48,986 bases of DNA from a bacterium (GCA_021824345.1 JAKAKW010000010.1:1-48986); one strand, 5' to 3'; positions 17,117 to 22,575 are shown, counted from the stretch's first letter. Notes: generated from the letters alone by a model not told the origin. A program made the numbers and translations.

Positions 17117-17188
17117 TGCACCCGGAGGGATTCGAACCCCCACTAACGGTTCCGAAGACCGTTGTGATATCCATTTCACTACGGGTGC
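17117..17188 (-). tRNA. tRNA-Arg(TCG)
   Basis: GCACCCG/CGGGTGC acceptor, ACGGT-CTTCGGA-ACCGT anticodon arm, GGTTCGAATCC. Confidence 0.95.
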
Positions 17189-17297
17189 CTGTTAATTTGT
17201 AATGCAAATAGTATACACTTTTTGCGGGCAAGATTGCACTTCGAGATCGGATCAATTATAATATTCGCGGGAAAGTTTCTTGATTTGACATCCGTTT

Positions 17298-17368
17298 GCG
17301 GTCATGGTTTAGTGGTAGAACACGTCCTTGCCAAGGATGAGACGGGAGTCCGATTCTCCCTGGCCGCA
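17298..17368 (+). tRNA. tRNA-Gly(GCC)
   Basis: GCGGTCA/TGGCCGC acceptor, CGTCC-TTGCCAA-GGATG; T-loop TCCGATT. Confidence 0.93.
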
Positions 17369-17445
17369 CAGAGATTTTTAAAGTCCATAATCGACATTTT
17401 TTATGTCCTTTATGCGGCTTTTTAATGTCTTTAACTATTAAGTCT

Positions 17446-17466
17446 TTATTCACAATCTGTGGATAA
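17446..17466. promoter_or_regulatory. inverted pair of DnaA-box-like sites
   Basis: TTATTCACA (17446-17454) and TGTGGATAA (17458-17466). Confidence 0.6.
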
Positions 17467-17583
17467 CTATGTGAGTATTGTTTATAAAGGACGTCTTTTA
17501 TGATGTCTTTTTGAAGTGACTTTTATAAGAAATAGCTTGACAAATAAGAATATTTTTGTAAAAGTCATTAAAAATCCTTATTT

Positions 17584-17626
17584 AGTTTCACGTGATAGAA
17601 TTTTAATAATTGTTTCGTATGAAACT
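17584..17626. promoter_or_regulatory. two parS-like sites upstream of yraN
   Basis: AGTTTCACGTGATAGA (13/16) and TGTTTCGTATGAAACT (12/16). Confidence 0.55.
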
Positions 17627-17653
17627 TTCATTAATTTACAAAATTTATAAAAT

Positions 17654-18067
17654 ATGCCAAAGGTTTTTACATCTAAAAAACAAAAAATCGGAGAGGTGGG
17701 AGAGAATATTGCTACACGGTTTCTTATGAAACATGGGTTTAAAATTATAGAAAGAAACTACACAAAACCATGTGGGGAAATAGATATTGTCGCTATAAAG
17801 TCAGGTAAGCTGTTCTTTGTCGAGGTAAAATCAATTTCTACTTTTGTATTTGGTCGCAACGAGAAACATGGTGCATGCGACAGTTATCGGCCAGAGGAGA
17901 ATATACACCCGCTCAAAATGCGTCGCATGGCCCGCACTGTCCAAACATATCTTTTACAAAGGCACGTTTCATGCGAAACTGAATGGCAAGTGGATTTAAT
18001 TGTAATATTTATGAATTTCAAGGACAGGATAGCAAGAATAAAAGTGGTAAAGGACATAATCTTATGA
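17654..18067 (+). CDS. yraN: YraN family (UPF0102) nuclease
   Basis: GEVGENIA..FL..GFKIIERNY...GEIDIVA...FFVEVK. Confidence 0.93.
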   Translation: MPKVFTSKKQKIGEVGENIATRFLMKHGFKIIERNYTKPCGEIDIVAIKSGKLFFVEVKSISTFVFGRNEKHGACDSYRPEENIHPLKMRRMARTVQTYLLQRHVSCETEWQVDLIVIFMNFKDRIARIKVVKDIIL

Positions 18068-18098
18068 TAGAATCAGAAAGCTTTTCGGGGGATTGGAC

Positions 18099-18169
18099 CG
18101 GGGTATAGTGTAATGGTAGCACGAGTCCTTTGGGAGGATTTAGTCTCGGTTCAAATCCGAGTACCCCGA
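18099..18169 (+). tRNA. tRNA-Pro(TGG)
   Basis: CGGGGTA/TACCCCG acceptor, loop TTTGGGA, GGTTCAAATCC. Confidence 0.95.
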
Positions 18170-18173
18170 CATT

Positions 18174-18244
18174 GCGGGATTAGTTTATCGGTAAAATGAC
18201 AGTTTTCCAAACTGTAGTGACCGGTCCGACTCCGGTATCCCGCA
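18174..18244 (+). tRNA. tRNA-Gly(TCC)
   Basis: GCGGGAT/ATCCCGC acceptor, ACAGT-TTTCCAA-ACTGT; T-loop TCCGACT. Confidence 0.93.
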
Positions 18245-18311: not shown

Positions 18312-19058
18312 ATGCCCATAATAATCCTGATAAGCATCGCCACTTTCGCCTCCACCTTGCTTGGAGGGCTTTTTGCACTGAAATTTAAAGACAAGCTTCA
18401 TCTGATCCTTGGTTTTTCAGCAGGCGCAATTATTGGAGTGGCTTTTTTTGATCTTCTGCCTGAATCAATCAGCCTGGGAAGCGGAAGATATGACGTGGCG
18501 GCAATTACTTCCATCACCGCTTTGGGCTTTGTTGCTTACACCATTTTAGACAGATTCGTTTTTTTTCATTCCCACAGCAATGATGAGCACGATCATGGAG
18601 AGGAAATAAAAAATCACGTCACAAGAAGAGGAATACTCGGAGCTGGCAGCTTGTCCACACACAGTTTTCTTGATGGCGCCGCAATCGGTTTGGCTTTTCA
18701 AGTATCCGCCATGGTTGGAGCAATAGTGGCGGTGGCCGTATTGGTGCATGATTTTTCCGACGGAATAAATACGGTTAATTTGGTACTGAAAAATTACGGA
18801 ACAAAAAACCAGGCATTCAGATGGCTTTTAGCGGACGCGATAGCGCCTGTTTTAGGAGTAATTTCGACTTTGTTCTTCACGGTACCTGAATCTGTTTTAG
18901 GCATTATTTTAGCGGTATTTGCGGGATTCTTCCTATATATTGGCGCTTCGGATTTGTTGCCGGAAAGCCATCATAGTCATCCGACTGCATGGACTACCTT
19001 TGCAACTGTCATTGGAGTGACGGTGCTTTATGGCGCGATAAGACTGGCAGGGGTGTAA
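18312..19058 (+). CDS. ZIP family metal transporter (ZupT-like)
   Basis: GFSAG..FFDLLPES, His-rich loop HSHSNDEHDH, HSFLDG, HDFSDG, FLYIGASDLLPE. Confidence 0.92.
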   Translation: MPIIILISIATFASTLLGGLFALKFKDKLHLILGFSAGAIIGVAFFDLLPESISLGSGRYDVAAITSITALGFVAYTILDRFVFFHSHSNDEHDHGEEIKNHVTRRGILGAGSLSTHSFLDGAAIGLAFQVSAMVGAIVAVAVLVHDFSDGINTVNLVLKNYGTKNQAFRWLLADAIAPVLGVISTLFFTVPESVLGIILAVFAGFFLYIGASDLLPESHHSHPTAWTTFATVIGVTVLYGAIRLAGV

Positions 19059-19135: not shown

Positions 19136-20251
19136 TTATTTCTTCCAGGAAGCGTCAACGCCCGGGTTTCTGGCACCATGCACTTCAAAGTGCAGATGGG
19201 GTCCGGTAGAGTGGCCGGTAGATCCGATATATCCTATGATCTGCCCTTGAGAAACTTCCTCGCCCCAGCGAGCCACTATTCTTGATTGGTGCGCATACAA
19301 AGTTTGGGTGCCGTTTGGATGGTCAATGATTACCAAATTGCCGAACCCTCCGTTCCAACCTGTCCTGGAGAACGAAACCCGGCCGGCGGCTGCAGCATAG
19401 ATCGGAGTGCCCGTGGGCGCCGCAAGATCCACTCCATTGTTGGCGTGCAATCCTTGAGTCAGCACATATCCCGGAACCGGATTCACATAATATCCTGAAA
19501 GATTGGGCAGGGAAGAGTGCGATTGATAGTATTTAATATCTTGGGCAAGACTTTGGTTTAGATTTTTTGCAGGAGTACCGCCACCTTCATCCATCATTTG
19601 TCCATTCGGAATTATCAATTGATTGCCTACGGAAAGCTTTGCGCTATCGGCCAGGCTGTTGTATTGCAAGATGTCTTGGACATCCGCTTTATATTTTTTT
19701 GCAATACTCTGAAGAGTATCTCCTTTCTTGACCGTGTATTCAATTCCATTCACCGGTAAAATCAAAAGGACGTCACCGGGTTTAATGGTGGCGCCTTTTT
19801 TCATATCGTTGGCCCAAAGAATAGTGTTTGTGGAAACGTCATACATGTCGGCTATCTGAGACAAAGTGTCTCCATTGCGTACAACATAAACGCTTATTTG
19901 GCCGGGCGAGAAGGTTTGGTCTTGGGTAGCGCTTGTTTGGTCTTGGGGATTATTTGGGACCAGGGCGTTGTTGTCCACTATGTTGTTTGAGGTACTGGAA
20001 GACACCGGATCTGCTGGACTTTTACTTCCATTGGCGTAGGCCAAAATCTGAATAGGAGACAAGCTGTTTTCCAAAATATCCATATTTTGGGAGGTCATAT
20101 CCGTCCCTTGCCCCCCCGTGGTTTCGGCAGATACCTTGGGCCCGAAAATAGTGGAAAAAATACTGGCATTTGTCGTCTCGGGTACCAAAAACATCCCTAT
20201 AGATAGGGAAATGGCTAGAAAAAGACTCAGTATTTTAAAATTAGGCTTTAT
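19136..20251 (-). CDS. secreted 2xLysM + M23 peptidoglycan endopeptidase
   Basis: YVVRNGDTLSQIA, YTVKKGDTLQSIA, HANNGVD, STGPHLHFEV; first ATG at 20194, but frame is open to ATA at 20251, completing a signal peptide. Confidence 0.9.
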   Translation of the reverse strand: MKPNFKILSLFLAISLSIGMFLVPETTNASIFSTIFGPKVSAETTGGQGTDMTSQNMDILENSLSPIQILAYANGSKSPADPVSSSTSNNIVDNNALVPNNPQDQTSATQDQTFSPGQISVYVVRNGDTLSQIADMYDVSTNTILWANDMKKGATIKPGDVLLILPVNGIEYTVKKGDTLQSIAKKYKADVQDILQYNSLADSAKLSVGNQLIIPNGQMMDEGGGTPAKNLNQSLAQDIKYYQSHSSLPNLSGYYVNPVPGYVLTQGLHANNGVDLAAPTGTPIYAAAAGRVSFSRTGWNGGFGNLVIIDHPNGTQTLYAHQSRIVARWGEEVSQGQIIGYIGSTGHSTGPHLHFEVHGARNPGVDASWKK

Positions 20252-20261
20252 AAATCAAGCG

Positions 20262-20414
20262 AATATCGCTGAATACCCTTGGCGTGCGACCTGTCCCGGA
20301 TAGGCCGGGAAACTCCCCCTAGGGAGAAAATGTAGCTCTAAATAAGGGTTTTCTAGCGAAATTACTGTCGTTTCAAGCGTTTCAGCCGTATATTCCTGCT
20401 ATCGTTCAGCGCTA
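20262..20414 (-). ncRNA. candidate structured cis-regulatory leader RNA
   Basis: Long closing helix ATTTCGCTAGAAAACCCTT/AAGGGTATTCAGCGATAT enclosing hairpins CTCCC/GGGAG and TCCCGG/CCGGGA. Confidence 0.55.
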
Positions 20415-20553
20415 TCCATAAGGGTAGCACAAAAGGGGGTCAAGTCAATCATTTGAGGGGAAAACGCACGTGGAAAAAAATTGACAATTTTAAAAAAAAT
20501 TAGCCTTATTTTTAACAAAAAAATGCGAAAAAATGTGTTAGTATATAAATCTG

Positions 20554-22575
20554 ATGGACCATTTATCGGAATTAAACGACAGGCAGAAAGAGGCGGCGCT
20601 TCATACGAAGGGGCCGCTTTTAATCGTGGCTGGAGCGGGAGCGGGCAAGACCAAAACCATCACCCATCGCATAATTAACCTTATAAAACAGGGCATTCCG
20701 CCGGAAAAGATCCTGGCAGTGACTTTTACCAACAAGGCGGCAAGGGAAATGCGGGAAAGGATTTTATCCGAGATAGAAAAAAACGCGAAAGGACAAGACT
20801 CTTTCCCGTTTGTCAGCACCTTCCATGCGCTCGGCGTTTTCATCATAAAGGAAAATGCCCGCCTTCTGGGCCTTACCAGGCATTTCAGCATCCTGGATGA
20901 GGCAGATTCCACCGCTATGATCAAGGAATCTATCAAAGAAATAAATCTTGATCCGAAAGAATACGAACCGCGCCGAATAAAAGGTATCATCAGCCGAGAA
21001 AAAGGAAACTTTACCGACCTGGAAGAATATAAGGAGCGCCAAGACCATATGGCGAAGATCGCCGGCCGAGTATGGGAGCTTTACGAAGAAAAAAAGAAAA
21101 AAGAGAACGCCCTGGATTTTGACGATTTGCTCTTAAAGACGGTCAAACTTCTGAAGGAAAACAAAATTGTAAGAAAAAAATATCAGAACAAATGGGAATA
21201 CTTGCATATAGACGAATACCAGGACACGAACGAAGTGCAATATAGACTCTCGCTCCTCCTTGCGGAAGGACATGGAAACATCTGCGTAGTGGGAGACGCG
21301 GATCAAAATGTGTACAGCTGGCGGGGGGCAAACCTGAAAAATATTTTGCATTTTGAAAAAGATTATCCCGGCACAAAAGTGGTCTTGCTCGAACAAAACT
21401 ATCGTTCCACCCAAAATATCCTTGAAGCGGCCAATGTGGTTATCAAAAAAAACAAATTCCGGCCGGAGAAGAATCTTTTCACCAAAAATGAAGAAGGCGA
21501 TAGGATTTCCCTGTACGAAGCTCTGGATGAAACAGATGAAGCGGATTTTGTGGCAACGAAGATTTTGGAGATTTTAGACGGAGGAGGGATCAGTAAAATT
21601 TTCTCGGGTCCTCGGGTCGGCCGCACCTCGAAAATGCGAATCAGCGGCCTCAACCAGACCGCTCGAAAATTTTCTGATCTCCCCTCCGTCAATCTCTCCG
21701 AGGTTGCCGTCCTGTACCGCACCAATTTCCAGTCGCGCGCGCTGGAAGAAGCGATGCTCCGATACAATATTCAATACCAGGTGCTCGGGATAAAATTCTT
21801 TGAAAGAAGAGAGGTGAAGGATACTCTCGCTTACTTGCGGGCCGCTCTGAATCCGGACAGCCTTTCGGACATAAGGCGGATAATAAATTTTCCGAAAAGG
21901 GGAGTGGGCAAGGTTACTTTGGCCAAGCTTTTCGCGGGGGAAGAAAAATCATTACCGGCCGGCATGAGAGTAAAAATATCCATCTTTTACAAGGTTTTAG
22001 AGGAAATCGCGGAAAAAATCCGCACGGAAAAAGCAAGCGCCGCCATTAAATTTGCGGTAAAAAAATCCGGCATAGAAACAGAGCTATCCAGCGGCACAGA
22101 AGAAGATTCAGAGCGATTGGAAAACATAAAAGAGCTGGCTACGCTCGCTCTAAAATATGATCAAATGCCTCCCGGAGAGGGAATAGAAAAACTGCTGGAA
22201 GACGCTGCTTTAGCCGGCGAACAGGACAGCTTAAGCAATAAAAAAGAGAATGAAAACAAAAATGCCGTGAAGCTCATGACGGTACACGCCGCAAAAGGTT
22301 TGGAGTTTGAATACGTGTTTGTCGTCGGGTTGGAAGAAGGACTCTTCCCAAATGAACGCGAGGGTGAAGTAAAGTCAGCAGAAGACTCGGAAGAGGAGCG
22401 CCGCCTGTTTTATGTGGCGCTTACCCGCGCGAAGAAAAAACTTTTTTTGTCTTATGCCAATTACCGCACTATTTTCGGCTCTCGTTCCATCAACGCTCCG
22501 TCAGAATTCATATACGACATTCCGGGCGATCTTCTGGAACACGAAGGGGAGAAAATCAAAACAATCTATTTATGA
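20554..22575 (+). CDS. pcrA: UvrD/PcrA SF1 DNA helicase
   Basis: AGAGAGKT, TFTNKAAREM, DEYQDTN, QNYRS, MTVHAAKGLEF, EERRLFYVALTRA. Confidence 0.96.
   Translation: MDHLSELNDRQKEAALHTKGPLLIVAGAGAGKTKTITHRIINLIKQGIPPEKILAVTFTNKAAREMRERILSEIEKNAKGQDSFPFVSTFHALGVFIIKENARLLGLTRHFSILDEADSTAMIKESIKEINLDPKEYEPRRIKGIISREKGNFTDLEEYKERQDHMAKIAGRVWELYEEKKKKENALDFDDLLLKTVKLLKENKIVRKKYQNKWEYLHIDEYQDTNEVQYRLSLLLAEGHGNICVVGDADQNVYSWRGANLKNILHFEKDYPGTKVVLLEQNYRSTQNILEAANVVIKKNKFRPEKNLFTKNEEGDRISLYEALDETDEADFVATKILEILDGGGISKIFSGPRVGRTSKMRISGLNQTARKFSDLPSVNLSEVAVLYRTNFQSRALEEAMLRYNIQYQVLGIKFFERREVKDTLAYLRAALNPDSLSDIRRIINFPKRGVGKVTLAKLFAGEEKSLPAGMRVKISIFYKVLEEIAEKIRTEKASAAIKFAVKKSGIETELSSGTEEDSERLENIKELATLALKYDQMPPGEGIEKLLEDAALAGEQDSLSNKKENENKNAVKLMTVHAAKGLEFEYVFVVGLEEGLFPNEREGEVKSAEDSEEERRLFYVALTRAKKKLFLSYANYRTIFGSRSINAPSEFIYDIPGDLLEHEGEKIKTIYL
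21577..21690. repeat. in-frame 114-bp palindromic insertion in pcrA
   Basis: GACGGAGGAGGGATCAGTAAAATTTTC...GAAAATTTTCTGATCTCCCCTCCGTC. Confidence 0.85.

Follow-up and report, generated by a model that had tools for sequence, protein, structure and literature searches.

The region upstream of a LysM-M23 peptidoglycan hydrolase gene raises the question of whether its long leader is a riboswitch or a regulatory RNA of another kind, and of how translation of the gene behind it begins. The locus lies in a stretch of 48,986 nucleotides (the window), which is contig C13 of an 832,874-base (0.83-Mb), 99.97% complete bacterial genome. Public records of close relatives carry the names Candidatus Nomurabacteria, Paceibacterota or Patescibacteria, and the genus itself appears there as Candidatus Nomurabacteria. 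To our knowledge, regulation in bacteria of the candidate phyla radiation (CPR) is almost unknown, and these organisms possess few transcription factors. A sequence-only reading of the window had taken the leader for a novel riboswitch-like element with a switch between competing helices. Comparison among relatives bears out a structured, covarying leader without an Rfam family, whereas neither the proposed switch nor the proposed ligands found support. The two outcomes that this reading had itself named as speaking against it, namely a lack of conservation or covariation in orthologous leaders and a match to an Rfam family, did not occur.

The gene and its start comprise the following features:

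19136 to 20251, minus strand: hydrolase gene encoding two LysM domains and one Peptidase_M23 domain, 371 codons from ATA (Pfam, ORF listing and N-terminus comparison)
20251 to 20165, minus strand: predicted signal peptide of the hydrolase, completed by the residues upstream of ATG 20194
20251 to 20249, minus strand: ATA start codon at a conserved position, the frame being closed by TGA at 20257 to 20255

Pfam recognises Peptidase_M23 (1.1e-32) and LysM (1.5e-26) in the product, and the gene is divergent from a UvrD-type helicase gene (20554-22575). On its 3' side lie a ZIP zinc-transporter gene (18312-19058, plus strand) and, within 17117-18244, four tRNA genes that reach the Rfam gathering score (17117-17188, minus strand; 17298-17368, 18099-18169 and 18174-18244, plus strand). 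The mechanical ORF call placed the start of the hydrolase at ATG 20194 (20192-20194), which is 19 codons too late and falls within the signal peptide. The sequence-only reading, too, had missed the non-AUG start. It had put the end of the structure ~10 nt before the start codon; the P1 helix of the window ends 11 nt 5' of ATA 20251-20249.

A DNA similarity search with the intergenic region in 60 relatives returned A/T-rich noise and short matches near the start. Orthologues were found with the hydrolase protein, which has a match in 112 of the 121 sampled genomes of the genus (including the unpublished genome G083), and upstream DNA was taken from 110 orthologous loci, with G083 left out. A profile built from 24 leaders matches 108 of these 110 loci, both misses being cut by contig ends, and 93 of the matches are near full length. 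RNAalifold recovered no pairs from the 510-column alignment A1, which was too gappy; the structure was obtained on A2, a MAFFT alignment of 68 of the 93 leaders (each of at most 200 nt), by applying RNAalifold to gap-filtered columns and extending helix P3. The covariance model R1 (173 positions, 31 pairs) matches all 98 non-AUG-type leaders among the 100 loci given to it, and the remaining two, L039 and L048, which it does not match, belong to types that lack the junction.

Both alignments support this structure. In A2, 84.6% of the cells can pair, and sliding the partner strand lowers this to 37-51% and the covariation score from 0.203 to 0.06-0.09; double-change cells number 75, where shuffles give 38.9 ± 4.9 (0/500). 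In A3, the 98 leaders aligned to R1, 87.6% of the cells pair, 29 of the 31 pairs show double changes, and 168 double-change cells compare with 59.2 ± 6.4 in shuffles, counts that are inflated by the fit to the model, so that those from MAFFT are the more conservative. Changes on both sides affect seven of the nine pairs of P1a and all four of P1b in A3. Overall, slid controls fall to 37-57% pairing, and the compensatory variation includes G-U intermediates and makes sense on one strand only. By contrast, single-sequence folding of the window is only modestly better than shuffles (z = -0.79 for 20240-20425, with 46 of 200 shuffles as good; z = -2.56 for 20252-20366, with 5 of 200), and it is therefore the comparison among leaders that establishes the leader as a conserved structured RNA beyond chance expectation.

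The family consensus consists of P1a, a helix of 9 bp (AUCGUGAGA with UCUCGCGAU), P1b of 4 bp, the hairpin P2, which carries a near-invariant GGUC in its apical loop, and the 10-bp hairpin P3, so that P2 and P3 branch from a three-way junction that P1 closes. Some members carry additional hairpins, and these are confined, as is usual for structured RNAs, to set positions: the 5' end, the segment after P1b and the loops of P2 and P3. Conserved bases lie outside P1 and in the apical loop, and the junction is left nearly without a conserved unpaired core. In the family P1 closes 14-16 nt 5' of the start, and the linker and the start itself are among the most conserved positions. A typical member (L134), folded alone, adopts the arrangement P0-P1-P2-P3, in which the candidate helix P0 pairs AAGACAG with UUGUUUU and covers positions -7 to -1 of the start. 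P0 is predicted in both the minimum-free-energy fold and the centroid of the typical member and is compatible with 79.2% of the cells, against 31-61% for slid partners, with 33 of 500 shuffles pairing as well; it shows no covariation beyond shuffles, of which 164 of 500 score as well.

Upstream of P1 no consensus fold and no supported helix was found in the 5' domain, and a mutual-information scan of the leaders gave no other long-range pairs. A local hairpin around CUGAA in this domain was rejected, its C/U changes being uncompensated. A pseudoknot between GRCY of the 5' domain and GGUC of the P2 loop could form four pairs in 59 of the 98 leaders; its 3' side is invariant and the variation is wobble-compatible only, without true covariation, and we keep it as a weak lead. 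Sequestration of a Shine-Dalgarno sequence by P1b (AAGG/CCUU) was likewise discarded, the genome showing no use of Shine-Dalgarno sequences and the motif lying ~27 nt from the start. As to alternative folds, in 67% of the leaders the P1 3' strand could pair otherwise, through GUCGU/GCGAU, several purine/U-rich matches are non-specific, and no conserved alternative pairing was found beyond such promiscuous matches. Family members show no terminator-like hairpin with a U tract directly after the structure.

The leader of the window itself can be described as follows:

20244 to 20421, minus strand: match to covariance model R1, covering the whole leader through the start codon (61.8 bits, E 1.3e-11)
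20367 to 20414, minus strand: purine-rich 5' domain with two GCUGAA motifs (20410-20405 and 20386-20381)
20362 to 20366, minus strand: AGUAA of the near-invariant AGUAAC (AGUAAU in the window), where the invariant columns of A1 and A2 fall
20362 to 20344, minus strand: P1 5' strand ATTTCGCTAGAAAACCCTT, pairing with 20280-20263, with double changes and compensation relative to L168
20326 to 20313, minus strand: hairpin 1, CUCCC-UA-GGGGGAG, in minimum-free-energy folds; window-specific, not conserved in L168
20309 to 20295, minus strand: hairpin 2, CCCGG-CCUAU-CCGGG, in minimum-free-energy folds; L168 has another hairpin, unlike it in sequence, in this position
20287 to 20291, minus strand: GGUCG, part of the near-invariant GGUCGU, which in the family makes up the apical loop of P2 and its closing pairs
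20280 to 20263, minus strand: P1 3' strand AAGGGTATTCAGCGATAT, holding UUCAGC at 20273-20268
20252 to 20262, minus strand: A/U-rich linker, in the family the 3' strand of candidate P0; five of the seven P0 pairs are possible in the window

R1 has a single significant match in the genome, the next best reaching 11.4 bits. Most members score 100-175 bits, and the window copy, at 61.8, retains the 5' motifs, AGUAA, P1 and GGUCG, while P3 is missing, P2 is ambiguous and two hairpins take the place of the family's P2 loop; it is a divergent, lineage-specific variant of the three-way junction, so that members of the family do not all share one fold. Its nearest relative, L168 (66% protein identity), differs from it by compensatory changes in P1. 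The long helix, both hairpins and the junction strands TTAGAGCTACA and CAGGTCGCACGCC described from the single sequence are all present where they had been placed, yet the two hairpins are specific to this lineage, the family consensus being P1-P2-P3. Similarly, the two GCTGAA copies and the TTCAGC at 20273-20268 exist, and the GCUGAA motifs are conserved in the family as YUGAA/GRCYGAA; the switch built on them is not supported, since UUCAG occurs in the P1 3' strand of one leader out of 98, that of the window. The window's 7-nt Watson-Crick complement to its 5' domain is the single maximum of the 98-leader set. We also note a terminator-like hairpin, AGCGA-UAU-UCGCU, followed by UGAUUUAU (20258-20270, minus strand), which overlaps the P1 3' strand, is window-specific and is absent from the family consensus.

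The transcript would arise from a promoter with these elements:

20469 to 20477, minus strand: distal degenerate DnaA-box-like site TTTTCCACG, read from the sequence
20456 to 20464, minus strand: proximal degenerate DnaA-box-like site TTTTCCCCT, with 6/9 agreement to TTATCCACA, aligned with the conserved box of the orthologues
20448 to 20443, minus strand: -35 hexamer TTGACT, read from the sequence
20429 to 20421, minus strand: TGCTACCCT, containing the -10 box, read from the sequence
20426 to 20421, minus strand: -10 hexamer TACCCT, separated from the -35 hexamer by a 16-nt spacer

TTGACT and TGCTACCCT, which the sequence-only reading had picked out, thus lie where it had put them. The arrangement recurs, as a -35-like hexamer, a spacer of 16-17 nt and a TAnnnT box, in 94 of the 97 leaders with enough upstream DNA, with TTGACT in 83 of these 94 and TACCCT in 44 orthologous leaders, though a consensus promoter scan did not flag TTGACT/TACCCT and had its sole hit at 20515-20487. 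Transcription would then start near 20414, giving a leader of ~163 nt, where the sequence-only reading had ~160 nt; this leader is conserved and folded. The motif TT[A/T]TCCACA, with at most one mismatch, stands 6 or 16 nt 5' of the -35 hexamer in 77 of the 97 leaders within the genus; we take it to be the DnaA-box consensus.

Some further observations concern this motif. A DnaA-box-like motif also stands upstream in most loci from outside the genus, and it is degenerate in the window (20456-20477, minus strand). The genome holds 21 perfect TTATCCACA sites, against 7.5 expected, many of them in promoter-like settings and including a divergent pair at C4:53401/53417. In addition, a repeat of ~24 nt that ends in TTATCCACA occurs in three copies (G000 C10:153505, C10:160133 and C14:770), each of which adjoins a tRNA T-arm-like sequence on the other strand.

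The codon aligned with window 20251-20249 is ATA in 86, ATT in 10 and ATC in one row of the 98-row alignment, one row being misaligned, and ATA in 82 and ATT in 11 of the 93 near-full-length leaders; in 73 of these 93, no in-frame ATG, GTG or TTG was found between the upstream stop and the aligned ATA/ATT codon. Beyond the genus, the hydrolase gene is present in all 61 sampled genomes of the order, and in 22 other genera with complete 5' ends (among L145-L167) it begins with ATT (14), ATC (4), ATA (3) or ATG (1), a tally for which the script gave 12/4/3/2 and in which L161 and L162 were corrected by eye from the sequence. Seven of these loci showed no canonical in-frame start before the hydrophobic segment. 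With ATT, ATC or ATA in 21 of the 22 other genera, a non-AUG start of the AUH class is an order-wide property of the hydrolase gene. Before the out-genus starts stands a conserved ...GGCUU context. The window's genome shows no Shine-Dalgarno peak ahead of 706 long ORFs and only an A/U enrichment from -12 to -1, so that initiation probably depends on an open A/U-rich landing site.

Within the genus, several orthologues lack the junction, and most of these begin with ATG. L048, L049, L056, L057, L075, L084, L088 and L140 have ATG and a leader of the type ...GGTACCATC-ATG, L118 has ATG with a different deletion and no junction, and L039 has ATT and resembles the out-genus type. The ATG-type leaders share homology with the long ones over the 5' part of the latter, through the P1 5' strand. 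In a quick single-gene tree, which is poorly resolved (24 of 48 inner branches open), the four ATG-type rows with full-length genes do not form one clade, and well-supported branches force at least three changes. This points to repeated loss of the junction, or to recombination of the 5' end. Loss of the junction together with gain of ATG fits a functional coupling of the fold to non-AUG initiation, the events being few and possibly non-independent.

R1 matches 100 of the 121 genomes of the genus (a tally that includes the unpublished G083), once in 99 of them and twice in G118. In that genome there are two copies of the hydrolase gene (L069 and L083), with one leader before each. The 98 matches in fetched loci end at the hydrolase start, as do the nine genome-wide rows compared, and wherever the location was checked the copy lies upstream of the LysM-M23 gene, no other gene and no regulon being associated with it. 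Elsewhere in the order, R1 found nothing at E <= 0.01 under stricter filters in 149 genomes from 130 genera; among named public loci it matches 40 of 80. Rfam, at gathering score, recognised only the four tRNAs in the window and only tRNAs in 20 orthologous loci, and it found nothing in 20 out-genus loci; at E <= 10 nothing relevant appeared in 20100-20650 of the window, and only noise on the other strand in 2560-2830 of L042, a typical member. The sequence-only reading had not recognised the ydaO consensus here, and indeed neither the window nor the orthologous loci match it or any other riboswitch family of Rfam. We take RF00379 to be the ydaO/yuaA c-di-AMP riboswitch, and the lysM-TM7, lysM-Actino, lysM-Prevotella and M23 motifs to be among the Rfam 15 models. 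The leader is a new family of structured leaders without an Rfam match. In the literature searched, neither this leader nor a non-AUG start of a hydrolase gene from Patescibacteria is described.

The three-way junction represents an elaboration, confined to this genus, of a leader that is older. Leaders from outside the genus (L146, L147, L153, L156, L163, L164 and others) share a hairpin, AUGGCUC-AACA-GAGCCAU, ~50-110 nt 5' of the start, which is followed by a UCUGAA/UCAGAAGA motif and has no Rfam match either. The short ATG-type leaders within the genus end in a similar, smaller hairpin, GAUGGUACCAUC.

We propose, with a probability of about 0.5, that the leader is a cis-acting translational operator coupled to a weak start codon. 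The stretch would comprise the promoter and the 5' untranslated leader of the mRNA for the secreted LysM-M23 peptidoglycan hydrolase, in which a rigid structure abuts the place where ribosomes land, an A/U-rich site that has no Shine-Dalgarno sequence and serves a weak AUA/AUU start. P0, an internal loop with AGUAAC and then P1 would form a long irregular rod capped by the junction. The balance would be shifted by a trans-acting factor with specificity for the near-invariant unpaired AGUAAC and GGUCGU, and fold and factor together would set the frequency of 30S initiation at AUA, and hence the dose of a potentially lytic enzyme. What is inferred here is that the leader acts on translation, what P0 does and what kind of effector is involved. 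We think a protein, or the initiation machinery itself, likelier in this role than a metabolite; a protein- or ribosome-directed operator is favoured by the narrow distribution, the single gene and the weakly conserved junction core, and the variable inner architecture also speaks against a metabolite.

The same features have to be weighed against a metabolite riboswitch, in which the junction with AGUAAC and GGUCGU would be the aptamer, for example for a cell-wall precursor or turnover product, and the bound ligand would stabilise P1/P0 and thereby shut or open the AUA start. We regard this as possible but doubtful. A multi-stem junction with covarying stems, near-invariant unpaired nucleotides and peripheral hairpins of variable length is aptamer-like, and without a matching Rfam family it would make a new class; moreover, genes of this class are those that carry c-di-AMP riboswitches and the orphan lysM-*/M23 motifs (PMC5737381). 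The element is, however, confined to one genus (0/149 genomes from 130 other genera) and to a single gene without a regulon, and its junction is nearly devoid of a conserved unpaired core. Furthermore, the window variant does without P3 and several lineages without the whole junction, and no conserved alternative pairing was found beyond promiscuous purine/U-rich ones. Covariation-backed conserved structure, a generic riboswitch feature, is thus present, while wide distribution or association with several genes is not. As for c-di-AMP and c-di-GMP, which the sequence-only reading had put forward as ligands to be probed, they are unlikely, since searches of the window genome for DAC (PF02457) and GGDEF domains gave no hits, whereas control genomes did.

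Other readings dispense with sensing altogether. The fold might serve mRNA stabilisation or processing (by protecting the 5' end or by offering an RNase site), or a separate small RNA might be made upstream, and the modest single-sequence z values (-0.79, -1.62, -2.56), the unstructured 5' domain and the lack of a proven expression platform would agree with this; we nevertheless judge it improbable, because the family structure is not followed by a terminator-like hairpin and U tract, because P1 closes so near the start with conserved linker and start codon, and because perfect association with the same gene and co-variation with the start-codon type would be unexpected for a small RNA. Conservation at the DNA level only, as promoter or operator sites with an incidental RNA fold, is very improbable: the conserved -35/-10 pair and the DnaA-box-like site upstream speak for it, but they lie 5' of the transcribed region, and the variation of the leader itself is compensatory in RNA terms and on one strand, with the slid controls at 37-57%. 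We give next to no credence to the idea that the ~100 nt between the P1 5' strand and ATA are an intron-like or bypassed element, with translation from GUG in P1. It takes its appeal from orthologues in which ...ACCATC-ATG-AGA-AC replaces ...ACCATC-GTG-AGA-AC...junction...ATA and from the homology between ATG-type and long leaders, which extends through the P1 5' strand. Yet only 54 of the 98 leaders retain this GUG, the remainder showing GUA, GCG or GCA in covariation with the 3' strand, and 46 of the 54 GUG leaders have an in-frame stop before ATA. The interval from GUG to the start falls into mod-3 classes of 29/37/32, and on this frame spread and the 54/98 count the leader was rejected as a uORF, coding sequence, bypassed element or intron.

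The translational operator that we favour shares traits with several known systems. In infC of E. coli, a non-AUG (AUU) start codon is read against IF3, and a conserved AUH start in one gene is a hallmark of initiation-fidelity-dependent expression. The hydrolase is like infC in that an AUH start is kept over large evolutionary distances in one gene, which is a resemblance only; it differs in encoding a cell-wall hydrolase, not IF3, and in the large conserved structure before the start. The infC gene of the window genome has an in-frame TTG available and is therefore uninformative on an AUU start. Leaders bound by ribosomal or other proteins are alike in being gene-specific, lineage-variable structures beside the ribosome binding site, and there, as here, homologous genes of sister lineages carry different structures; in the present case, however, no binding protein is predicted, and an exported enzyme is unlikely to be its own repressor. 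The ydaO/yuaA riboswitch has a pseudo-symmetric fold with two junctions. The leader resembles it in its position 5' of a cell-wall hydrolase gene, and differs in having a single three-way junction, no match to the model and no DAC domain in the genome.

The closest counterparts by gene context are the lysM-TM7, lysM-Actino, lysM-Prevotella and M23 motifs, which Weinberg et al. 2017 (PMC5737381) describe as candidate cis-regulatory 5' UTR structures, each from one lineage, and place among c-di-AMP-related candidates, with no c-di-AMP binding observed. Our leader shares with them the lysM/M23 gene context, the lineage restriction and the lack of a known ligand, and it sits directly upstream of a LysM/M23 gene, i.e. 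in the same 5' UTR context. It differs in its Parcubacteria/Paceibacterota-type lineage, its long P1 with a three-way junction and its non-AUG start, and it has no Rfam match, be it at gathering score or at E <= 10.

A bolder reading, spanning an entire order of Patescibacteria, would see the mRNA of the main, division-type LysM-M23 hydrolase as having a mandatory AUU/AUC/AUA start, a DnaA-box-flanked promoter and a structured leader; the junction RNA into which this leader would have grown in the Nomurabacteria-type genus would be either a new riboswitch class for a cell-envelope or cell-cycle signal or an IRES-like enhancer recruiting a Shine-Dalgarno-less ribosome to AUA. We consider this unlikely as a whole; if true, cell-wall cleavage would be coupled, via DnaA, to the initiation of replication and, via IF3, to the condition of the translation initiation machinery. 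At a nearer level, the leader is a well-supported structured RNA from the CPR, with 98 aligned examples and compensatory changes in 29 of 31 pairs, and the AUA/AUU/AUC start is conserved from the genus to the order level. Gene callers will mis-annotate such a start, and annotation pipelines are likely to truncate the LysM-M23 gene throughout the order. In an organism that lacks Shine-Dalgarno sequences, fold and start codon together offer a concrete link of mRNA structure to non-AUG initiation that can be put to the test. Finally, the leader adds one more lineage-specific member to the unexplained lysM/M23 set, and this set suggests a common control logic for peptidoglycan hydrolases.
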